A DNA stretch of 64,000 nt from a virus: the IMG/VR virus record IMGVR_UViG_3300044683_000172, positions 1-64,000 of that record; one strand, given 5' to 3'. The position numbers were made by a program, and so were the translations under genes. Below are positions 13,583-44,453 of this stretch, piece by piece. A model generated the notes under the pieces. That model was not told where the DNA came from and did no database searches. It was given only the letters and a program-made list of their open reading frames with translations. Numbering within the stretch: the first letter of the stretch is position 1; the number at the start of each line of letters is the position of its first letter.

Positions 13583-13914
13583 CCTTTTACTACACAGGAC
13601 GCGATCCTGTGGCAGACCTGCTCAAGATGTTCGAAGGGACGACGAAAGTTCAGGATGTCGTCGCCATCGGATGGCTGGATTTGACAGGTCGCCAGATCGG
13701 ATACGGCCGCGCTCAGCAGATTCTCAGTCTTCTGAACAAGAACATGGGCATCAACTCGTCCGGACCGATGGAAGCGACGGCAATCGACAGCCTACGGACC
13801 ATCGGGAACCAGATCGGCCACCAAAAGGCGCAGCGAATCCTGCAACTGCTGTGGGCGGACTATCTCAGAAAATGCGGCCATCCAATGGAAGGCGCGTTGA
13901 GTGGAGACCTTTGA
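13579..13914 (+). CDS. hypothetical protein with duplicated helix-hairpin-helix-like motif
   Basis: ATGA overlap. Internal duplication GRQIGYGRAQQILSLL / GNQIGHQKAQRILQLL. Confidence 0.55.
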   Translation: MTFYYTGRDPVADLLKMFEGTTKVQDVVAIGWLDLTGRQIGYGRAQQILSLLNKNMGINSSGPMEATAIDSLRTIGNQIGHQKAQRILQLLWADYLRKCGHPMEGALSGDL

Positions 13915-14016
13915 CACGTCCAACTCCTTCGCAAAATGATCATCCGCATCCTGGCAGCATCCGTTATCCTTGCTTTCTTCCTCTTTTGCTCGCCAATCTT
14001 GGCGTAAGGAGTCGTC

Positions 14017-14229
14017 TTGAAAATCTTTCTCAAGTTGGCGTTGATTCTCGCCATGGTGATGCTGATCTCCTTCATGTTGGGAGTCGTCTCGCCGATCCTT
14101 ATCAACTCCGATTCGTGGATCGGCATTGCCGTGCTGCCATTCGTGTGGTTGGCCGTAATCGGCGCCAACATCGTCGTGATCAAGCTTACTTTCTTCTCAA
14201 CCCTCCAACAACAAAAGGAGAACAAATGA
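14017..14229 (+). CDS. small integral membrane protein
   Basis: 70 aa, TTG start after a TAAGGAG SD. Two to three hydrophobic spans. Overlaps the SPFH gene start. Confidence 0.5.
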   Translation: MKIFLKLALILAMVMLISFMLGVVSPILINSDSWIGIAVLPFVWLAVIGANIVVIKLTFFSTLQQQKENK

Positions 14230-15050
14230 AACGATTCCGTTCGCTCATCCTCGCGGCCTTCATCGGCTGCATGTCGCTTCTCGCTGGCTGCGACAACGTT
14301 CCGGCAGGCCACGTCGGCATCCAGGTCTCGCGCTACGGCGGCGACCGAGGCGTCAACATCGACGTGAAACAGCCGGGCCGATATTTCAACGGCTGGAACG
14401 TGGACATGTTCCTGTTCCCCACGTTCACCCAATCGCATGTCTGGGACAAGGCCGGTTCCGATGAATCGTTCACGTTCCAAACGGTCGAAGGCCTGAGCGT
14501 CAACACCGATGTCGGGATCAGCTATACCATCGCGCCCGAGAATGCTGCGAAGGTCTTCCAGAAATATCGGCGAGGTGTCGATGAGATCACGGCCGTGTAC
14601 CTTCGTGCCATGGTCCGCGATACGCTCAACCTTGCCGGCGCCCGTATGGCAATCGAAGACGTGTACGGCAAGGGCAAAGCTGATCTTCAGAAGAGCGTGG
14701 AAGACGACGTGAAGAAGCAAGCCGCGAGCGTCGGCATCACGGTCGAATCCGTGTACTTCGTGAATGAGATGCGATTGCCGCCTTCCGTCGTGAACTCGAT
14801 CAACGCGAAGATCGCCGCGACGCAAGTTGCCCAGCAGAAGGAAAACGAGCTACGCGCAGCCGAGGCGGATGCGGCCAAGGCGATTGCCCAGGCCAAGGGC
14901 GAAGCCGAAGCGACACGAATCCGTGGCGAGGCGCTACGATCCAGCCCGCAGGCGCTCCAGCAGTTGGCAATCGAGCGCTGGGACGGCAAGTTGCCTCAGT
15001 ACATCGGCGCCGGTCAGCCGGTCCCGTTTGTCGGCGCGACGGTGAAGTGA
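14226..15050 (+). CDS. SPFH/band-7 (prohibitin-like) domain lipoprotein
   Basis: ATG at 14226 after AAAGGAG. Lipobox MKRFRSLILAAFIGCMSLLAGC. Body and coiled-coil tail fit the SPFH family. The upstream in-frame extension (13671-) is rejected. Confidence 0.8.
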   Translation: MKRFRSLILAAFIGCMSLLAGCDNVPAGHVGIQVSRYGGDRGVNIDVKQPGRYFNGWNVDMFLFPTFTQSHVWDKAGSDESFTFQTVEGLSVNTDVGISYTIAPENAAKVFQKYRRGVDEITAVYLRAMVRDTLNLAGARMAIEDVYGKGKADLQKSVEDDVKKQAASVGITVESVYFVNEMRLPPSVVNSINAKIAATQVAQQKENELRAAEADAAKAIAQAKGEAEATRIRGEALRSSPQALQQLAIERWDGKLPQYIGAGQPVPFVGATVK

Positions 15051-25165: not shown

Positions 25166-26305
25166 ATGATGAGCGAAGAATATTGCAGCAAGTGTGGCGG
25201 TGAAGGCGTGCCGCCGCCAAAGTACGTCTATAGCGCTGACGGAAAGATTGTCGCTCTGACGAATCCTCTAGACCGCCTGAAATATGAGGCCGATCAGAAA
25301 CAGAACGAGCAAACTGAATCTTCTGGTCTGTCATTCAACGACGCGATTAAGTGGATTGAGAAGCGCGCTGGCGAATATCTCGTTCAGCACTCCTATATTG
25401 ACCCAGACACAGGAGCCGTCGAGTTCGGGACAGGGCGTCATGCCCAAGCCAAACGTGAATACGTTAGCGAGCTGGAAGAGATCATCGAAGGTTTGCGCGC
25501 GCTTGCTCGCACCCATGCTGCGGATGGCAAGAAGATGGGCAATCGGAGTTGCCAAGGTACCGCAGACACGTGCCCGAACGAATGCTCGTCACCGTGCCAA
25601 CCGCAAGCCGCCCAACAGCAAGCCGAGCCGACCACGGGCGAAGAAATCCAAGTCAACGTGTCTGGTGGCGACGTTTACACACTACCGCTTCAGGCGAGTG
25701 GCATGGACAAGCCTCGATTTGTGGTGCATGTGCCGCGCCAACAGCAGGACGAGCCGAAGTGCAAATCCTGCGGCGGTAACAATGCCGACATGCCATGCGC
25801 GTATCCGGAAGGCGGCCAGCCGCATTGCTTGAAGCAGGCCGAGCCGGTTGCGGAAATTCGCCACAGAAACGGCCATCCCTATGCGGCCATGCGCAAAGCC
25901 TATGATGCCAACGGCAACACTCTGGCAGAAGGAACATTGCTTTATCCGGGTGCCCAGCAGGACGAGCCGGGGGCGGATGAGCGCGCGGCGTTTGAGCACG
26001 CAGCGCAGCGCTGGGGCTTCGACTTGTCAGTCTGTAATGGCGTCTACACGGAAAGCAAAACGCACCATGCTTGGTGCATGTGGCAAGTTGCCGCCCAGTC
26101 CGATCACAAAAACGCCCAGAACAACGCCGTCCTTGATCGAATCGCCGGAGCCATCCAAGACGCATTCAAGCGTACCGTCGCCGGCCAGAAGCCTCGTCTT
26201 GCGGACATTTGCTTCAACGACGGCCTCAAATTGGCGCTCAATATCGTTCGCGCCGAATTCAAATCGCAGGAAATCAACGACGCCATGTGCAAGGAGAAGA
26301 AATGA
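25166..26305 (+). CDS. hypothetical protein with Cys clusters
   Basis: 379 aa. CSKCGGEG and KCKSCGG motifs, repeated QQDEP segments. Confidence 0.65.
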   Translation: MMSEEYCSKCGGEGVPPPKYVYSADGKIVALTNPLDRLKYEADQKQNEQTESSGLSFNDAIKWIEKRAGEYLVQHSYIDPDTGAVEFGTGRHAQAKREYVSELEEIIEGLRALARTHAADGKKMGNRSCQGTADTCPNECSSPCQPQAAQQQAEPTTGEEIQVNVSGGDVYTLPLQASGMDKPRFVVHVPRQQQDEPKCKSCGGNNADMPCAYPEGGQPHCLKQAEPVAEIRHRNGHPYAAMRKAYDANGNTLAEGTLLYPGAQQDEPGADERAAFEHAAQRWGFDLSVCNGVYTESKTHHAWCMWQVAAQSDHKNAQNNAVLDRIAGAIQDAFKRTVAGQKPRLADICFNDGLKLALNIVRAEFKSQEINDAMCKEKK

Positions 26306-26872: not shown

Positions 26873-27010
26873 ATGATCAAAAGAAATGGCACATCGATCA
26901 TCTTTGCTTTCTTCGCGCTGATGTCGATCTTTGGTGGTGAAAAGGGCGCTGCGCTCGCATTCTTCTTCTTTTGCGGATTGACTTTGGATTTGAAGAGAGG
27001 GTGTGAGTGA
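26873..27010 (+). CDS. small membrane protein (45 aa)
   Basis: ATG at 26873 after GGAG. MIKRNGTSIIFAFFALMSIFGGEKGAALAFFFFCGL. Confidence 0.4.
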   Translation: MIKRNGTSIIFAFFALMSIFGGEKGAALAFFFFCGLTLDLKRGCE

Positions 27011-27852
27011 AACGAGAAGAGAATGAAATGTTGGACCAAATCAAATTCACTTCCGAGCACGAATTGCCTGTGCAATCCCTAAAGAGATCAGGGATTTACC
27101 GCATCGTATCGCCAAGCGGAAATTTCTATGTAGGAAGTGCTGTTGAAATTCGAAAACGATGGCGCAATCACAAGCGTCAACTTATCTCTGGCGTTCACCA
27201 CAACAAACCGCTGCAAGCTGCTGCCAAAAAGTACGGTTTGGAAAGCCTGCGATTCGAGATCATCGAGCACTGCGATTCTGATGTGCTCATTAACAGGGAA
27301 CAGTTTTACATCGACGCGCTGCGCCCTAAGTACAACACGTGTTTGGTGGCCGGAAGCCCACGCGGCGTGAAGCGTTCCGAAGAGACGAAGGCGAAGGTGC
27401 GCGCCGCGAATGTCGGCAGGAAGCACTCCGAAGAGACGAAGGCAAAACTGAGTGCCGCGAAGATCGGTAAGAGGCTTTCTGAGGACCACAAAGCGAAGTT
27501 GAGCGCGGCACGAATCGGCAAGATCGGCAAGAAGCATTCCGAAGAGACAAAGGCGAAGATGAGTGCGGCACACACCGGTAAGAAGTTTTCTGAGGAGCAC
27601 AAGGCGAAGATGAGCGCCGCGAATATCGGCAAGAAGCATTCCGAAGAGGCAAAGGCAAAAATGAGCGCGACACGAACCGGTAAGAGGCTTTCTGAGGAGC
27701 ACAAGGCAAATATGAGCGCCGCGCTTACCGGCAGGAAGCTTTCTGAGGAGCACAAGGCGAAGCTGCGCGCAGCGCGTCTGGCCTATTTGTCAAGGCGCAA
27801 CGGCGAGATTGGCACTTCGCTCGGATTTTCTTTCCCTGCTGATTCACTTTGA
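27007..27852 (+). CDS. free-standing GIY-YIG homing endonuclease with eight NUMOD3 repeats
   Basis: GIYRIVSPSGNFYVGSAVEIRKRWRNH (GIY-YIG), then 8 tandem SEE(T/H)KAK(L/M)SAAxxGKK units. GTG at 27007 or ATG at 27028. Confidence 0.9.
   Translation: MKREENEMLDQIKFTSEHELPVQSLKRSGIYRIVSPSGNFYVGSAVEIRKRWRNHKRQLISGVHHNKPLQAAAKKYGLESLRFEIIEHCDSDVLINREQFYIDALRPKYNTCLVAGSPRGVKRSEETKAKVRAANVGRKHSEETKAKLSAAKIGKRLSEDHKAKLSAARIGKIGKKHSEETKAKMSAAHTGKKFSEEHKAKMSAANIGKKHSEEAKAKMSATRTGKRLSEEHKANMSAALTGRKLSEEHKAKLRAARLAYLSRRNGEIGTSLGFSFPADSL
27376..27792 (+). repeat. 51-nt tandem coding repeats (NUMOD3 units)
   Basis: Eight 17-aa units (one of 20 aa) inside the endonuclease gene. These generate the spurious antisense ORFs 27088..27755. 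Confidence 0.85.
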
Positions 27853-30123: not shown

Positions 30124-31107
30124 ATGGCTAAATACAATCGCATTATCGGCGCAGGCTTGGCTGGTCTGATCGCGGCGTGTCACTTCAAGGATGCCGAGAT
30201 TTACGAGGCCGGTCCACGGCAAGACAACCACAAGGCTCTTTTGCGATTTCGCGACGAGTCGGTGTCCAATCTGACTGGCATCCCGTTCAAACCGGTCACC
30301 GTCGATAAGGCGATCTACTTGGATGGCTGTTCGCCGGGATCGCGTGAGCGCGGCCTGTATGGCGCCTGTACCATCCAGATGGCCAATTGGTATGCCACGA
30401 AGACGACCGGACACGTTGCCGGCCGCAGCATCTGGAACCTGGAGCGGGCGACTCGCTATATCGCGCCGGAAGATTTCCATCAACGTCTCGTGGACAAGGC
30501 TGGATTCCTGGTCAACTACGAAAAGCCGATTGATACGATCCACTCGTGGGACAAACATCATTACAACACCATCAGCACCGCACCTTTGCCGGTCATGTTG
30601 AAGGCAGCTGGAATCGAGTTGCCGCATCTTCAAACGGAAAAGGCGCCGATCAAGGTTCAGCGTTTCCGCATTCCGAAGTGCGATGTTTACCAAACGATTT
30701 ATTTCCCTGAGATGGAATTGCGAGTGTTCCGAGCTTCCATAACCGGAGATATGTTGATCATCGAATCGGTGATGGAAAAGCACAATTCGGTGTTCGATTG
30801 GTGGTACATGCCAGATGCCGAATTGGATGTGGTTCTCACCGCGTTTGGTCTGAACCATCTACTGATGGACATCGAGCACCTGGAAGATGTTGAGCAGAAG
30901 TATGGCAAGATCGTGCCGATATCTTCCGAGCAGCGTCACGCGGTTCTCTATGAGCTCACCGAGCGATTCGGCGTCTATTCGCTGGGGCGATTCGCGACGT
31001 GGCGGAACATCCTTCTGGACGATGTGGTGAAGGACATCGCCGTGATCGACCGACTCATCAAGGCGTCCGACTATGGGCGCCTCCACATGACTTCGGAGAT
31101 GGTATGA
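30124..31107 (+). CDS. FAD/NAD(P)-binding Rossmann protein, UDP-galactopyranose mutase / amine-oxidase-like
   Basis: N-terminal IIGAGLAGLIAACHF dinucleotide-binding motif, ISTAPLPVM, and C-terminal SLGRFATWRNILLDDVV resembling the GRxxxYxYxxMD end of Glf-type flavoenzymes. Confidence 0.65.
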   Translation: MAKYNRIIGAGLAGLIAACHFKDAEIYEAGPRQDNHKALLRFRDESVSNLTGIPFKPVTVDKAIYLDGCSPGSRERGLYGACTIQMANWYATKTTGHVAGRSIWNLERATRYIAPEDFHQRLVDKAGFLVNYEKPIDTIHSWDKHHYNTISTAPLPVMLKAAGIELPHLQTEKAPIKVQRFRIPKCDVYQTIYFPEMELRVFRASITGDMLIIESVMEKHNSVFDWWYMPDAELDVVLTAFGLNHLLMDIEHLEDVEQKYGKIVPISSEQRHAVLYELTERFGVYSLGRFATWRNILLDDVVKDIAVIDRLIKASDYGRLHMTSEMV

Positions 31108-31463
31108 TCAGCAAGCTTGATAAGGCTCAAATGGCTGAATACGGCAACGCCAGCGTCGTGTGCACCGCTCCTGGTCCGTTGAACGGAAAGATGGCGTTGG
31201 CGCGGCCGCATCCGACTCAGCCGGACATGTTCTTGGTCCAGTTCAACGATCTGAATTCGCGTTGGCCTAACACTACGTTTGATGATTTCAACTACGAGTG
31301 GCAGCCGCGCAACTGCCTTGGCTTCGGGTGGACGGTCTTCCAATCCAAATTCTTCAAGTCGATGACGAAAGAGGATTTGGACAAGCGCGTGAAATTCCGA
31401 TGCTTGCCGTCTGGGTTGCCCGTTGGGCGACTCATATCTGTGACCACCAAATTCCCAGATTGA
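31104..31463 (+). CDS. hypothetical protein
   Basis: ATGA overlap with the upstream stop. 119 aa. Confidence 0.55.
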   Translation: MISKLDKAQMAEYGNASVVCTAPGPLNGKMALARPHPTQPDMFLVQFNDLNSRWPNTTFDDFNYEWQPRNCLGFGWTVFQSKFFKSMTKEDLDKRVKFRCLPSGLPVGRLISVTTKFPD

Positions 31464-31510
31464 CGTGAACATCAGCGATGAGGCATAATAACCTCATCGC
31501 TTTTGCGTTT
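31460..31510 (+). promoter_or_regulatory. promoter TTGACG-N18-CATAAT nested in a terminator hairpin
   Basis: AGCGATGAGG (31474-31483) pairs with CCTCATCGCT (31492-31501), then TTTTGCGTTTC. The 8-nt loop is CATAATAA, i.e. the -10 box. Confidence 0.5.
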
Positions 31511-31529
31511 CTCAGAAAGGAATAGAACT

Positions 31530-31715
31530 ATGAAGGCCGTACTTGCTTCCATCCGACAGTTGGCTTCCATCGCCGTTCAAGAGGCCGTCGCTCGCATCAA
31601 GGATCGTTCTGTCAGCGAGCCGCCGACGTTCTACTGCCAGGAGTTGGATTCGTTTACCGGAGATGACGGCCTTCAGTATGTTGTTGAAATCACTGTACGT
31701 CTGAAGGAGGATTGA
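31530..31715 (+). CDS. hypothetical protein (61 aa)
   Basis: ATG after a TCAGAAAGGAATAGAACT leader. Confidence 0.45.
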   Translation: MKAVLASIRQLASIAVQEAVARIKDRSVSEPPTFYCQELDSFTGDDGLQYVVEITVRLKED

Positions 31716-31889
31716 ATGTACAAGGTTCTGGTCACGACGATTTATATCGGTTGCGGCTCGGGAGCAGCCGTCCATACGTCTACTATCGAATTCGATAGCC
31801 ACGCGCTCGCTACCGCTGCCGTTCGTATCATCAACGAAAACCACTGCGACAATAACTACAGCCAGAAAGCCCTGGCCCTCTTCCAATGA
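31716..31889 (+). CDS. hypothetical protein (57 aa)
   Basis: GAAGGAGG SD. MYKVLVTTIYIGCGSGAAVHTS... Stop overlaps the thyX start (ATGA). Confidence 0.4.
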   Translation: MYKVLVTTIYIGCGSGAAVHTSTIEFDSHALATAAVRIINENHCDNNYSQKALALFQ

Positions 31890-32716
31890 AAGTCACCCTC
31901 ATATCCCACACCCAAAACGCTCTGGAGCTTCTGGTTGATACGAAGCACACGCGTATGCGCGGCAAGACGGCCGATCAGATGACTGAAGCCGAACGATATG
32001 AGCACTTCCAGTACATGCTTGATACGATCCGCTCGCCGTTCGAGTTCGTTGATTACATCTTCCAGATCGAAGGCGTGTCCAAGAACTTCACGCATCAACT
32101 GGTTCGCACACGTACGGGCGCGTATCAGCAGGAAACCAGTCGCGCGCTGGAAATATCGGCCTTCGATACGATCAAGCCGAAGGCATTCGATGGAAACGGA
32201 CAGATAGATACGCCCTTGAATGAAGTTTGGGCGGACGCAATCGCCGATGCAGACGCCAACTACAAACAGTTGATTGCAATGGGCGCCGACCTTCAAGACG
32301 CCCGCGCCATCCTTCCGTCCAACATGGCCACCAAGATCATGGCCAAGTTTAATCTCCGGACGCTTTCTGATATGGCCAAGAACCGCCTGTGCGCACGTAC
32401 ACAAGGTGAGTATCAGGAAGTCTTTCGGGCAATGCGCGCGGCGGTGTTGGAAGTTCATCCCTGGTCCGACCCGCTCTTGCAGGTGGCGTGCGTTGCGACA
32501 GGGCAATGCGCCTTTCCGCGTTGGGGATCGAAGGTTATCGAGACGACGGCAAACGTACTGGGCCGCGATACCGTCATCGGTCAGAAGTATCAGTGTCCGC
32601 ACTATCGGCCTTGGATGGACCTGTCCGCTCAGAAGGAAGCATTGCGCGTATCCTTCTGGTCCAAGGAAGAAATCGCGCAAGCCAACCCCGTCGCCAAGAA
32701 TGGCGTTTCCATGTAA
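31886..32716 (+). CDS. thyX: ThyX-family (flavin-dependent thymidylate synthase-like) protein with variant signature motif
   Basis: FQIEGVSKNFTHQLVRTRTGAYQQETSRAL aligns with the ThyX RHRxxxxxxxS motif but reads RTR. Downstream ARAILPSNMATKIMAKFNLRTL...RLCARTQGEYQ fits the family. Confidence 0.8.
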   Translation: MKVTLISHTQNALELLVDTKHTRMRGKTADQMTEAERYEHFQYMLDTIRSPFEFVDYIFQIEGVSKNFTHQLVRTRTGAYQQETSRALEISAFDTIKPKAFDGNGQIDTPLNEVWADAIADADANYKQLIAMGADLQDARAILPSNMATKIMAKFNLRTLSDMAKNRLCARTQGEYQEVFRAMRAAVLEVHPWSDPLLQVACVATGQCAFPRWGSKVIETTANVLGRDTVIGQKYQCPHYRPWMDLSAQKEALRVSFWSKEEIAQANPVAKNGVSM

Positions 32717-32724
32717 GGAACTTC

Positions 32725-33858
32725 ATGAACATCATCAACGAAACTCCCAAGCGACCGCTCTACATCTTCGACCTGGATGGCACCGTTTCATCGGACGGCT
32801 GGCGCAAGCATCTTCTGCCGAAACACCCGGACGGCCAGCCGCGTGCGGAGAATGATGGAACGATTCCCCACGATGCGTACGACAAGTACCATTCCCTGCT
32901 GGGCGGCGATATGCCCATGTACGCTGGATTCAAGTGCCTGAAGCGTGCCATTGCTTTGGGCGCCTTCATCGTTTTCTTCACGGCACGGCCGACGTCTTAT
33001 CACGAAAAGACTGTTGAATGGCTGGAAAAGTTTCTCGGCAACTTCGATTACTGGCTTTACATGCGTGACGATGATGATCTTCGCGGCTCCGTTGAGCTCA
33101 AGTTGGATATGTTGAGCCGTCTCAAAGAAACGCTGAAGTTGAGCGCCCATTGGCACTTGGAAACCATCGCCATCTACGATGACCGAGCCGATGTTCTTGG
33201 AGCAATCGGCAGCACCGGCATCAACGCCTTCCGTATCACCGAGAACAATGAAGTTGTGATGGTCTCGTATCACAACGGACATAAATTCCCGAAGGAGATG
33301 TCTGCTCTTCACGAACAGATCAACGCCGGAGCCGCCGGGAATTGCGACCCCAACAAAAAACAAGACGCGAACGTCAAGGCCATCGAAGAAACGAAAACCA
33401 TTGGCGATATCTCGATCAAGACGCGAACCGAATTCGTCGCGCCTGCCAATCACGTCAGCGGATTCGTTGATAAACCCGAATCCCTGGCCAAAGCCATTGG
33501 AAATGCATGGGAGGCTGTGATGGGCCTTACCGGGAAGCCCGTTCGAGAAACGAGCGCGGCCGACCTGCTGGACGAAATGGCCGCGACGTTCCGAGAGCGC
33601 AACAAGGTGTACGGCAACAACGAGAAGCTGGTTGGCGACGTGATGTCCGCGATGTTTCCGAATGGCGTGACGCTCCGGACGGCAGCAGACTTTCGCATGT
33701 GGCACCTGTTTGAATTGAAGGTGGTGAAGTTGACACGTTTCGCTGTCTCCGGCCTGCAGCACCAAGACTCCATCCACGACGACGGCGTTTATAGCGCCAT
33801 GTGTGAACGTCTGGTTGGTACCCACAACATTCAAATCAACCAGGACGAATCGGAGTGA
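32725..33858 (+). CDS. fusion of a HAD-superfamily phosphatase (T4 Pnk-phosphatase-like) and a C-terminal all-alpha NTP-pyrophosphohydrolase-like domain
   Basis: LYIFDLDGTV (motif I), FFTARP (II), IYDDRADV (IV). The C-terminal FRERNKVYGNNE...WHLFELKVVKLTRF...HQDSIHDDGVYSAM resembles DUF1599/DUF6378-type domains. Confidence 0.7.
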   Translation: MNIINETPKRPLYIFDLDGTVSSDGWRKHLLPKHPDGQPRAENDGTIPHDAYDKYHSLLGGDMPMYAGFKCLKRAIALGAFIVFFTARPTSYHEKTVEWLEKFLGNFDYWLYMRDDDDLRGSVELKLDMLSRLKETLKLSAHWHLETIAIYDDRADVLGAIGSTGINAFRITENNEVVMVSYHNGHKFPKEMSALHEQINAGAAGNCDPNKKQDANVKAIEETKTIGDISIKTRTEFVAPANHVSGFVDKPESLAKAIGNAWEAVMGLTGKPVRETSAADLLDEMAATFRERNKVYGNNEKLVGDVMSAMFPNGVTLRTAADFRMWHLFELKVVKLTRFAVSGLQHQDSIHDDGVYSAMCERLVGTHNIQINQDESE

Positions 33859-33860
33859 CC

Positions 33861-34268
33861 ATGGAAGACAAATTCTCTGAAGACAATCCGAAATACGGAA
33901 TGCCACCGTTGAATGATTATGACCGCCGAAAGGAGTTGCAGGAAGCCGATTTGTTGCCTGCTTACAGTCACTTCTCCCAGCTGAATCCGGCCGAGCAAGA
34001 GCGGCTGACGCTTTTGTACGAAGAGGCCAGCGAAGTCATCAAGGAAGTGGCCAAGATTCAGCGACACGGCTTTGAGTCGCGCAATCCGGATAATCCGATG
34101 GCGAACACCAACCGGCAGAATTTGGCCATCGAAATCGGTCAACTTCAGTTTATCATCAACGTTCTGAAAGAGCGCGGCGATGTGGACGGAAAATTGGTTG
34201 ATCACGTCGCCAAGGAGCGCCATCTTTCCATCAACCGTTACCTCCACCACAACAAATTTCGAGCATGA
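33861..34268 (+). CDS. MazG-like NTP pyrophosphohydrolase
   Basis: LTLLYEEASEVIKEVAKIQRHG...NLAIEIGQLQFIINVL fits the EExxE/ExxD all-alpha NTP-PPase pattern. GTG at 33855 is an alternative start. Confidence 0.7.
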   Translation: MEDKFSEDNPKYGMPPLNDYDRRKELQEADLLPAYSHFSQLNPAEQERLTLLYEEASEVIKEVAKIQRHGFESRNPDNPMANTNRQNLAIEIGQLQFIINVLKERGDVDGKLVDHVAKERHLSINRYLHHNKFRA

Positions 34269-34984
34269 ACTCCTTTGTGAACAAAACGTCTGACAACCGA
34301 CTCGCCGGCAAATCCTTCATCGTCACCGGCGCTGGCGCTGGTCTGGGCGCGGCGATCTGCCGACGCCTGAATGAATCCGGAGCGCGTACGTACGGCATCG
34401 ACATCAAGTGGGGAAGCGATGTGCGTGACCCGGCCATCTGGGATGCTTACAAGGGATGGGATATCGACGGCCTGATCAACTGCGCTGGCATCAACGCCAA
34501 CGACTGGTTTGAGGATGTTAGCCCTTTCCAGTTGCAGAACGTTATGGAAGTGAACGCATTCTCGATGGTGTACGCCGTGCAAGGTTTGCTGCCGCAGCTG
34601 CACAAATCGTCGGGCGTCGTCGTCAACATCGTATCCAACGCCGCTAGTATGCCGATGACCTCGTCTCTGGCCTACAACATGTCCAAGGCGGCAGCGCTGA
34701 TGGCCACGAAGCAGATGGCGCACGAGCTTACGAAGAAATACGGGATCACCGTCTTCAGCGTCTCGCCGAACAAGCTGAAAGGCACCGAGATGTCCAAGCA
34801 GATCGAGGCCGACGTGCAACGCGTTCGCGGCTGGACGCCCGAATTCGCCGCCGACTATCAGGCCAAGTCGCTTATGCACGGGCTGGAGACGCCGCCGGAA
34901 ATGGTCGCTGAGGTCATCGTCAATGCTCTAGAAACCGGCGCGTGGAAGTATATGAGCGGGACTGACATTCCGGTCGGCAAGTAA
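34265..34984 (+). CDS. short-chain dehydrogenase/reductase (SDR)
   Basis: TGAGAGLGAAI cofactor motif, NCAG, and catalytic YNMSKAA. Confidence 0.9.
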   Translation: MNSFVNKTSDNRLAGKSFIVTGAGAGLGAAICRRLNESGARTYGIDIKWGSDVRDPAIWDAYKGWDIDGLINCAGINANDWFEDVSPFQLQNVMEVNAFSMVYAVQGLLPQLHKSSGVVVNIVSNAASMPMTSSLAYNMSKAAALMATKQMAHELTKKYGITVFSVSPNKLKGTEMSKQIEADVQRVRGWTPEFAADYQAKSLMHGLETPPEMVAEVIVNALETGAWKYMSGTDIPVGK

Positions 34985-35022
34985 GCGCGTATCATCAACT
35001 TTCTCAACTTCAAGGATTCACC

Positions 35023-35691
35023 ATGACCCAACTGAAATTCCGCATCGAACAAATCGCCCTGGCTCCTGCCAACACCGGCCGCGCCATCAAGCTTCTTTCC
35101 GACCTCGGCCTCACCGACTGGTTCAAGGACAACGTGGTGGCCAGCGGGCATGTGTACGGCGTTCCTGGCCAGAACAGCGCCCTTTTGCAGTTCAACTACC
35201 AAGCCGGCAACGGCAACGATCCGGCCGGCAAGCCGTTGGAGTTGGAAGTGCTGAAGTACGTGGACGGCAACAACTGGCTGAACTATCGCCCGGACAACAC
35301 CACGTCGCATCTGGGCATGCACGTCACGAGCGAAGAACTGTACGCCTTCCAGAAGTATTTCGAGCGCGAAGGCATCCCCGTTGCCCAGGCCGTTTGGACG
35401 GATGCGCACACAAATCCCGCCATCGCCGGCAAGCGTTTCTACAACTACGTCATCTTCGATACACACCAGATCATCGGCGTCGATCTGAAGTTCATCGTGC
35501 GCCATGACGTCACGCAAGTGGAGCAGAAAGAATCGCGCTTGCATCGCAATGGCGAAATCACGAGCAATGTCAAGGTCGAAATCGATACGAAGGACATCGA
35601 CCGTGCCGTCAAGCGCGCTCTGTCCGCCAAGAAGACTGTCGCCAAGCCTGCCAAGCCGGTCGGGCGCAAAACCGCTGTGCGCTCGAAATAA
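35023..35691 (+). CDS. VOC (glyoxalase/dioxygenase-fold)-like protein with basic tail
   Basis: IEQIALAPANTGRAIKLLSDLG..., LELEVLKY, SHLGMHVTSEEL are typical paired beta-alpha-beta-beta-beta module strings. Lys-rich C-terminus. Confidence 0.5.
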   Translation: MTQLKFRIEQIALAPANTGRAIKLLSDLGLTDWFKDNVVASGHVYGVPGQNSALLQFNYQAGNGNDPAGKPLELEVLKYVDGNNWLNYRPDNTTSHLGMHVTSEELYAFQKYFEREGIPVAQAVWTDAHTNPAIAGKRFYNYVIFDTHQIIGVDLKFIVRHDVTQVEQKESRLHRNGEITSNVKVEIDTKDIDRAVKRALSAKKTVAKPAKPVGRKTAVRSK

Positions 35692-43889: not shown

Positions 43890-44453
43890 ATGACTGAATA
43901 CAACATTTCCATCCAAGACCTTTTCGCTGCCGTCGTTGCCTGGGCGAAAGCGCGCAATCTCATCGCAGGCAGCGATCCGAAGACGCAAACGCTCAAGACC
44001 GTCAGCGAATTCGCCGAGATCGGCGCTGGCATCTTCAAAGAAGACATCGACGAAATCAAGGACGGATTGGGCGACACCCTTGTCACCGTGATCATCGTCG
44101 CGGCGCAGCTTGGCAAGGACGCATATGATGCATTCGAAACGAAAATCAGCCTGGAAAGCGAGCTTGGCGAAGATTTCGAAATGTACAACTACGAACTGGC
44201 AAGCGCAACGCTGGGGCTGATGGCCGACAACGTCATCAAGGGGCAAGTCAACGACTACATGATCAATCTCGCCGTGTTCATCCAGCTGCTTGCCGATATC
44301 GCCGAATCCCGCAGTTGCAGCCTTCACGACTGTCTGGCCGCTGCCTACGATGAGATCAAGGACCGCAAGGGCGTGATGTACCACGGCGCCTTCATCAAGG
44401 ATTCGGACCCGCGCTATGCAGGCGCCTGCGCCGAACTTGGCCTGGAGGCTTAA
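43890..44453 (+). CDS. MazG-like NTP pyrophosphohydrolase
   Basis: TQTLKTVSEFAEIGAGIFKEDIDEIKDGLGDTLVTVIIVAAQLG and C-terminal AYDEIKDRKG fit the MazG/dimeric dUTPase-like pattern. Confidence 0.7.
   Translation: MTEYNISIQDLFAAVVAWAKARNLIAGSDPKTQTLKTVSEFAEIGAGIFKEDIDEIKDGLGDTLVTVIIVAAQLGKDAYDAFETKISLESELGEDFEMYNYELASATLGLMADNVIKGQVNDYMINLAVFIQLLADIAESRSCSLHDCLAAAYDEIKDRKGVMYHGAFIKDSDPRYAGACAELGLEA

Follow-up and report, generated by a model that had tools for sequence, protein, structure and literature searches.

A divergent viral ThyX subfamily with RTR in place of the RHR signature and a putative four-cysteine site in a PB1-like phage

Does the replacement of the histidine in the defining signature of a flavin-dependent thymidylate synthase, ThyX, signal a change in the chemistry of the enzyme? 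The question is raised by a gene in a 64,000-nucleotide stretch of viral DNA (positions 1 to 64,000 of IMG/VR record IMGVR_UViG_3300044683_000172; hereafter the window), where an original prediction from the sequence had placed a ThyX homologue whose motif reads RTR instead of RHR, and had suggested that it might act on another substrate or give another product. Annotation as ThyX is already present in hundreds of phages; what is new here is a subfamily signature, a cysteine site and a gene cassette. On balance we take the protein to be a working flavin-dependent methylase of deoxyuridine monophosphate (dUMP) that gives deoxythymidine monophosphate (dTMP), belonging to a divergent viral subfamily, a reading that rests on fold, residue conservation and gene context.

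31886-32716, plus strand: ThyX-like gene, 276 aa, ATG start; Thy1 core at residues 1-194, C-terminal extension at residues 195-276.

The open reading frame (ORF), which holds the sequence FTHQLVRTRTGAYQQETSRALE, encodes a full-length Thy1/ThyX-fold protein, and its ATG overlaps the stop codon of a 57-aa ORF upstream (ATGA). It matches Pfam Thy1 (PF02511) along the whole profile (1-191/191; E=3.5e-31; 108.9 bits, with the cut-off at 24.8) and the PHROG family phrog_85, "thymidylate synthase" (E=4e-44), so that the ORF, the motif string and the ThyX homology of the original prediction were all borne out. ThyX enzymes are homotetramers in which three subunits contribute to an active site. An AlphaFold2 (AF2) monomer model has a predicted local distance difference test score (pLDDT) of 93.5, and the top 50 Foldseek matches to it are ThyX or PolB chains only. 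The best of these is Thermotoga maritima ThyX (TM0449; PDB 1O26, besides many mutant structures), used here as the reference enzyme, with a template modelling (TM) score of 0.77 on the target over ~200 columns at ~21% identity. The two proteins share the fold over ~200 residues, and the window protein has ~80 further C-terminal residues without a counterpart. Thermus thermophilus Thy1 (PDB 6J61), which has an appended C-terminal domain, is among the best matches in both sequence and structure, and the window protein aligns with it over the core ~197 columns only.

32099-32146, plus strand: signature stretch LVRTRTGAYQQETSRA, residues L72-A87, placed by alignment to T. maritima ThyX and kept in 118/120 homologues; R74-T75-R76 is encoded at nt 32105-32113.

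An ungapped phmmer alignment pairs R78, H79 and R80 of the T. maritima enzyme with R74, T75 and R76, and further on S88, G89, R90 and Y91 with T84, S85, R86 and A87; the 12-residue tag offset of the T. maritima PDB chains was verified through the sequences and titles of the H53A (4gtf) and Y91F (8req) entries. The signature RHRxxxxxxxS is thus not found in the window protein, which reads RTRTGAYQQET(S): the His is Thr, the Ser position is also Thr, and a Ser follows one residue later. The two exchanges that had been proposed, motif His to Thr and the following Tyr to Ala, are seen in this alignment, and one point needs correcting: the motif Ser is displaced too, Thr84 lying at S88 and Ser85 one position on.

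Threonine in the middle of the motif turned out to be common. The 120 closest homologues (the clade) read RTR in 118 cases and RTH in one, and the last reads RTR outside the counting pattern. A HMMER scan of 1.84 billion cluster representatives returned 2353 matches, canonical ThyX among them, of which the best 150 (E <1e-18) form a distinct subfamily around the window protein. Among these 150 cluster representatives the middle residue of RxR is T in 57, Q in 19, H in 18, S in 8, N in 5 and A in 1, and in the half of the subfamily that bears the cysteines described below T (19) is about as frequent as H (17). The position of Tyr91 is V, T, A, I or F across the representatives and that of Ser88 is S, T or A. 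In characterised ThyX enzymes RHR hydrogen-bonds the adenosine monophosphate (AMP) phosphate, the ribityl and the flavin mononucleotide (FMN) phosphate of flavin adenine dinucleotide (FAD) (PMC6514825), and Thr, Ser, Asn or Gln could plausibly take over this contact from the motif His. Because the middle position varies across the subfamily, RTR, as judged from these alignments, is the normal state in this viral group and by itself says little about chemistry, and the exchange of His for Thr no longer serves as the sign of new chemistry that it had been taken for. The opposite possibility, that RTR is a common neutral variant of bona fide ThyX, agrees with our data as far as frequency at the family level goes; the carriers are not, however, characterised ThyX enzymes. 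Another substrate or product stays among the alternatives, now resting on features other than RTR. A literature search on His79 found nothing relevant. Two representatives, P0164 (637 aa) and P0166 (428 aa), contain an intein (Intein_splicing, Hint) at position ~70 of the Thy1 profile, directly before RxR; inteins usually home into essential catalytic motifs.

If RTR itself is uninformative, the rest of the active site has to be considered. Conservation was assessed in the 120 clade members and in ~100 (101) representatives of the wider subfamily.

32027-32029, plus strand: Ile48, aligned with His53 of T. maritima ThyX; I, L or V in 96/101 representatives.

Kept in the window protein and near-invariant in the representatives are (T. 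maritima numbers) E58, Q75, R78, R80, R90, R147, N163, R165, R174, Q180 and E182. The set that binds and activates dUMP is present as R74, R86, R140, R167 and Q71 (= R78, R90, R147, R174 and Q75), each invariant or above 94% in the 101 representatives. We take R90 and R174 (here R86 and R167) to bind and polarise the uracil ring; the arginines of the dUMP phosphate site are kept as well. Others picked R90 and R174 for mutant structures (PDB titles 5ios, 5iot, 4kat). The predicted FAD contacts (R78/H79/R80, E58, T/S55, N163, R165) are all kept but His79, which is Thr. The representatives have, almost uniformly, I/L/V at His53, Phe at His59, Gln at Glu86 and Arg at His178. His53 of the T. maritima enzyme presumably stacks on folate. 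It has been mutated and crystallised with folate by others, as the titles of PDB entries 4gtf and 4kas indicate, and E144 was also chosen for mutation by others. Compared with that enzyme the window protein has the exchanges H53I, H59F, H79T, E86Q, S88T, Y91A, E144Q, N169D and H178R, and at D176 it has a cysteine of the four-cysteine motif described next. Because the arginines are kept and the histidines replaced, the nucleotide-binding and uracil-activating machinery appears intact and the side that serves flavin, folate and reduced nicotinamide adenine dinucleotide phosphate (NADPH) appears remodelled. The gene is under strong purifying selection across the 120 homologues.

The second feature of the subfamily is a set of cysteines in and around the C-terminal extension.

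32390-32392, plus strand: Cys169, two residues past Arg167 (= catalytic Arg174), putative first ligand of a four-cysteine (Cys4) site; 100% in the 120 clade members.
32489-32509, plus strand: C202-x5-C208 (CVATGQC), second and third Cys; 100% conserved in the clade.
32594-32596, plus strand: Cys237 (in QCPHY), fourth Cys; 100% in the clade, aligned with the 'xCP' Cys of other members.
32681-32713, plus strand: C-terminal tail ANPVAKNGVSM (A-x-P-[VI]-A-x-x-G-x-[ST]-M), from the alignment.

C169, C202, C208 and C237 are invariant in 120/120 clade members. In the wider subfamily the first three cysteines occur together in 45/101 representatives, each of which has a fourth 7-29 residues further on; 53/101 lack them, carry S, G or N instead at position 169 and end in a different, helical tail; and the 3/101 with partial sets are all fragments. 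The spacing is C-x32-C-x5-C-x(6-9, or 28 in the window clade)-C, with C-x5-C fixed in 44/45 Cys-type representatives, and a Pro follows the fourth Cys in 28/45 of these and in 73/120 clade members. The AF2 model has a pLDDT of 93-96 through the Cys region and predicts a clade-specific beta-hairpin between C208 and C237 (strands E217-224 and E227-235). No solved ThyX structure has a counterpart of the C-terminal ~80 residues. Because the four cysteines occur all or none, we infer that they are the signature of a putative metal site, zinc or iron-sulfur, beside Arg167. Targeted literature searches for iron-sulfur or zinc in ThyX found nothing relevant. A separate observation concerns ORF257 of Stygiolobus rod-shaped virus (L016 1902-2675), an archaeal rudivirus ThyX with canonical histidines (HGYWSVLEH, RHR). 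Its catalytic Arg is followed by 'RLC', and three further cysteines lie C-terminally at a different spacing. Judging from its sequence, the cysteine feature may predate the non-His subfamily or extend beyond it.

Who carries such proteins? A scan of genomes from 185,579 species, one per species, found only 7 loci, all of them on contigs of metagenome-assembled genomes (MAGs) or on a 595-bp contig, and the same scan turned up no cellular organism whose only thymidylate synthase is an RTR-type ThyX. The clusters of ten distant representatives contain metagenome proteins throughout. The subfamily is almost exclusively viral. The window itself is from a PB1-like (Pbunavirus-related) myovirus, and a megablast of its 29-35 kb region against 50,697 phage records gave no nucleotide match; a search for contigs that encode exactly the window protein also found none. 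At the protein level the ThyX-like product is 70% identical to that of Burkholderia phage vB_BglM_WTB (WTB). Its identity to the proteins of ~290 PB1-like phages of Pseudomonas is ~61%, and to the Wifcevirus and Myosmarvirus proteins it is 57-60%. These orthologues (57-70%; among them PB1 ORF59, F8 gp059 and 14-1 ORF59) have the same RTR and the same four cysteines. The gene order is that of PB1, F8 and WTB: Dda-like helicase, phrog_4765, phrog_4828, small ORFs, ThyX, HAD/"PNK", exonuclease and a Pol III-alpha-like polymerase.

Within this order the ThyX-like gene has two conserved neighbours.

30124-31107, plus strand: 327-aa FAD-type Rossmann flavoprotein with an N-terminal GxGxxG (phrog_4828, E=9e-107).
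31104-31463, 31503-31715 and 31716-31889, plus strand: three small ORFs separating the flavoprotein gene from the ThyX-like one, the last overlapping the ThyX start.
32725-33858, plus strand: HAD phosphatase domain (DLDGT, PNKP-phosphatase-like) with a ~95-aa C-terminal domain (phrog_4889, E=5.6e-55).

The flavoprotein belongs to no Pfam family and has 2910 homologues. Its AF2 model (pLDDT 88) matches GR2-type FAD enzymes in Foldseek at TM 0.5-0.6, the matches being geranylgeranyl-reductase-like proteins, UDP-galactopyranose mutases, amine oxidases, group-A monooxygenases and renalase. A run of small ORFs similar to that in the window occurs at this place in PB1, F8 and WTB. The HAD_PNKP match of the downstream protein is weak (23.9 bits, under the cut-off), and no P-loop kinase motif was seen in it by eye, though relatives are annotated 'polynucleotide kinase'; a sequence search of this protein against the PDB was uninformative. 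Its C-terminal domain (residues ~280-377) matches DUF6378 weakly (E 0.14). As side observations, that domain is conserved alone in many loci and lies within a 'dehalogenase-like' protein in Rhizobium phage RHph_TM39, and the flavoprotein (30124-31107) has many invariant Arg and Lys residues, so that one might speculate about a nucleotide or nucleic-acid substrate.

By tblastn a homologue of the flavoprotein lies directly upstream of the ThyX-like gene in L001-L004, L006, L010-L015, L018-L020 and L023. These loci comprise WTB, PB1, F8, Cronobacter phage Ss1, three MAG-derived contigs and several metagenomic contigs; the ThyX of the metagenomic contigs is of the Cys or the non-Cys type and 34-44% identical to the window protein. 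Stop and start codons overlap in several of the cassettes, and a HAD phosphatase follows the ThyX-like gene in most loci, with or without the conserved C-terminal domain. In all, both neighbours flank the gene in more than 12 divergent phage loci. The exceptions are RHph_TM39, which has no flavoprotein within 6 kb of its ThyX-like gene, and a 573-aa "RQR" type, which also lacks one. Fusions of flavoprotein and ThyX were sought in 28 long representatives and none was found, the extra length being N-terminal domains of unknown kind or inteins. A Pol III-alpha/Pam3-like replication module is common to all these loci, so that part of the synteny may reflect inheritance within one large phage lineage and not independent selection. 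In RHph_TM39 the subfamily gene lies near genes for dUTPase, both ribonucleotide reductase (RNR) subunits (alpha and beta) and NUDIX proteins, and in L019 near a deoxycytidine monophosphate (dCMP) deaminase gene; dUTPase, RNR and dCMP deaminase are classical neighbours in the dTMP pathway. The same stretch of L019, a metagenomic contig (3811-4233), also shows, beside the cassette, a PF04447 dATP/dGTP pyrophosphohydrolase and an HD-domain protein. PF04447 is presumably the MazZ type of aminoadenine (Z-base) phages.

The DNA of relatives of the window phage bears on what the enzyme makes. According to a 2025 preprint the DNA of the Pbunaviruses F8 and 14-1, long considered unmodified, has ~1/4 of its thymidines replaced, in TG context, by nucleosides of 362 and 390 Da, the remaining ~3/4 being ordinary deoxythymidine (dT) (PMC12191111). 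Because the modified quarter sits in TG context and 75% is ordinary dT, a post-replicative step is implied. Elsewhere, ThyA-type phage homologues (dUMP/dCMP hydroxymethylases) supply the first hypermodification intermediate (PMC8989533), and the 5-hydroxy-dCMP synthase of RB69 and DLP3 is a phage thymidylate synthase homologue with a new product (PMC13326640). Those proteins have the ThyA fold, whereas the window protein has the ThyX fold, and a literature search for ThyX in hypermodification found no ThyX-fold example. Among ~40 window ORFs (most of those of at least 100 aa, small ORFs partly) Pfam gave no ThyA, P-loop 5-hydroxymethyldeoxyuridine (5-hmdU) kinase, aGPT-Pplase, glycosyltransferase or dioxygenase. 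Pfam and PHROG together gave none of the genes of the known 5-hmdU-based pathways of Lee et al. 2018 and 2021 (ThyA-type dUMP hydroxymethylase, 5-hmdU DNA kinase, aGPT-Pplase transferase) in these ORFs, in agreement with the statement for Pbunaviruses (PMC12191111).

F8 and 14-1 also allow a comparison between two modifications. Their ThyX genes are 93.8% identical with the conserved core unchanged, and their flavoproteins 97.3%, which is no meaningful difference, so that neither protein accounts for the differing adducts. Across the 18.6-kb replication region of the two phages (L024 for F8, L025 for 14-1) genes are 78-99% identical except ORF70 (398 vs 434 aa, 57% identity), the most divergent gene of the region.

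We favour a functional dUMP methylase because the arginines are kept, the gene context in RHph_TM39 and L019 is of the dTMP type, and the modification in relatives points to a post-replicative step. In such an enzyme FAD and dUMP would be bound through the conserved arginines, the reduced flavin would accept a one-carbon unit and pass the carbon to C5 of dUMP, and the carbon would there be reduced to a methyl, so that phage DNA synthesis would be supplied with dTMP. The His whose place is taken by the Thr of RTR does no more, in characterised enzymes, than hydrogen-bond the phosphate and ribityl of FAD. The redox and one-carbon side would differ from that of textbook ThyX, the positions of His53, His59, His79 and His178 all being replaced. 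The Cys4 site, with zinc or an iron-sulfur centre, would tie the C-terminal extension to the helix bearing Arg167, and the GR2-fold flavoprotein, judging by its co-inheritance, could be a dedicated redox partner or a supplier of substrate. Together the Cys4 site and the flavoprotein suggest an unusual mode of flavin reduction or loading.

Several points weigh against a dTMP synthase. The subfamily has no solved or characterised member, the closest PDB sequence match of the window protein is distant (E ~1e-7, ~21% identity), and its score against the NCBIfam thyX equivalog TIGR02170 is 82.7 bits, below the curated cut-off of 87.9. Ile lies at the His53 position and Gln at that of E144. The trio of flavoprotein, ThyX and HAD protein is kept in loci where protein identity is as low as 28-47%, and it is hard to see why a dTMP synthase should require a GR2 flavoprotein of its own or a HAD phosphatase. 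In L014 the gene is embedded among genes for GT2, UDP-galactopyranose mutase (GLF), PIG-L and a YfbR-like 5'-nucleotidase. Finally, F8 and 14-1 carry no recognisable hypermodification genes (PMC12191111), and Wifceviruses resist restriction-modification systems without a known protection mechanism.

The main alternative keeps ThyX chemistry on dUMP and changes the C5 product, which would feed thymidine hypermodification; we consider it unlikely. The product could be 5-hydroxymethyl-dUMP, made by hydrating the exocyclic methylene in place of reducing it, or another C5-substituted dUMP, and the flavoprotein and the HAD phosphatase would carry out the next steps of the pathway. Such a product would help to explain how F8 and 14-1 come by their 362- and 390-Da thymidines without known genes for them (PMC12191111), and the ThyX-like protein is the only recognisable pyrimidine-C5 enzyme among the ~40 ORFs scanned. 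The replacement of flavin- and folate-site histidines throughout the subfamily, the conserved trio, and the sugar-nucleotide genes (GT2, GLF, PIG-L) and YfbR-like 5'-deoxynucleotidase around the gene in L014 point the same way, and the ThyA-type 5-hydroxy-dCMP synthase of phage offers a precedent (PMC13326640). In the window, moreover, genes of a MazG-like protein and a short-chain dehydrogenase (SDR) come after the cassette, an addition to the gene order that the PB1-like phages have in common.

33855-35691, plus strand: accessory genes that separate the HAD gene from the exonuclease; PB1, F8 and WTB lack them here.
33855-34268, plus strand: MazG-like nucleoside triphosphate pyrophosphohydrolase.
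34265-34984, plus strand: SDR.
35023-35691, plus strand: 222-aa protein, no assigned function.

What lowers the probability of another product is, first, the pattern of the modification: a route through the nucleotide pool would replace T randomly or fully, and only TG sites, ~25% of T, are modified. The near identity of the F8 and 14-1 ThyX proteins despite different modifications counts in the same direction, as does the adjacency of the same subfamily to dUTPase and RNR genes in RHph_TM39, and the synteny may reflect inheritance in the lineage of Pol III-alpha/Pam3-like phages.

A more specific proposal, which we hold to be improbable, makes the whole cassette (GR2 flavoprotein, Cys4 ThyX-like protein, HAD protein) the origin of PB1-like thymidine hypermodification, with a carbon not derived from folate methylene placed on uracil C5 and an iron-sulfur centre feeding the flavin. 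Iminium chemistry at flavin N5 may here add a hydrated methylene, leading to 5-hmdUMP, or an aldose-derived carbon, leading to a polyhydroxyalkyl side chain; by mass arithmetic, the 362-Da nucleoside of F8 fits 5-(tetrahydroxypentyl)-deoxyuridine or a 5-hmdU O-tetritol. The cassette is a candidate for a hypermodification pathway because relatives are modified, no known genes account for this, and sugar genes (in L014) and SDRs accompany it. If the proposal is true, the window protein would be without precedent in two ways, as a ThyX-fold enzyme of DNA hypermodification and as a metallo-ThyX. Independently of the ThyX question, the flavoprotein at 30124-31107 is itself a candidate for an enzyme of Pbunavirus thymidine modification. 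The pair of SDR and 222-aa genes also lies beside the cassette in L020, an unrelated metagenomic contig (7741-8905; 49-51% identity), and the SDR alone in L006; a link of the two genes to the sugar or sugar-alcohol adducts of relatives is a guess.

An acceptor other than dUMP seems less probable again. It could be dCMP, or uridine monophosphate (UMP) as for PolB of polyoxin biosynthesis, or uracil or thymine in DNA. The S88 and Y91 positions are non-canonical and that of E86 is Gln, PolB (4p5b) is among the structural matches, and the TG-specific modification of relatives requires some enzyme that works at the DNA level. Against this, R86 and R167 (= R90 and R174) are invariant or nearly so, and in an enzyme specific for cytosine one would expect other residues there. 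The arginines that we take to bind the dUMP phosphate are kept as well, and to our knowledge no ThyX-fold enzyme acts on polynucleotides, which argues against DNA as the acceptor. No special likeness to the ThyX-like methylases of nucleoside antibiotic pathways, which the original prediction mentions, emerged from the structural comparison. PolB, a UMP/dUMP C5-methylase and ThyX-fold paralogue of altered specificity (PDB 4P5B), ranks 26th in Foldseek and is no closer than ordinary T. maritima ThyX (19% vs 21% identity, TM 0.70 vs 0.77); its gene stands in a Streptomyces antibiotic cluster, whereas that of the window stands in a phage replication module with no nucleoside-antibiotic genes around it.

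That the protein has lost its activity and survives as a ThyX relic with a structural or regulatory task, as its departure from the family signature and its score under the equivalog threshold might suggest, is very improbable given substrate and cofactor arginines conserved over hundreds of diverged homologues, inteins at the RxR motif in two representatives, a high-confidence model with a predicted intact active-site scaffold, and strong purifying selection.

The choice between a dTMP synthase and its alternatives has consequences either way. Work on ThyX enzymology and inhibitors is built on a few canonical enzymes that share RHR and His53. The subfamily described here, abundant in metagenomes and present in therapeutic Pbunavirus phages, dispenses with those histidines; half of it adds a four-Cys site beside the catalytic Arg, and it travels with a flavoprotein of its own. 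Should the protein prove to be an ordinary dTMP synthase, the "defining" motif cannot be essential, and a different mode of flavin reduction or loading is indicated. Otherwise no better candidate is at hand for the first step of Pbunavirus thymidine hypermodification, and the modification sets the sensitivity of these phages to END nucleases and restriction systems, and hence their use in therapy.

Other genes of the window are mentioned for completeness. A GIY-YIG / NUMOD3 homing endonuclease (27007-27852, plus strand) lies just upstream of the Dda-like helicase, and PB1, F8 and WTB have no annotated equivalent at that place. A 379-aa ORF (25166-26305, plus strand) has good coding statistics and no Pfam, PHROG or NCBIfam match. 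Two accessory genes are unusual for this type of phage, one for a 459-aa SPFH/Band-7 domain protein (13671-15050, plus strand) and one for a second, weak MazG-like protein of 187 aa (43890-44453, plus strand).

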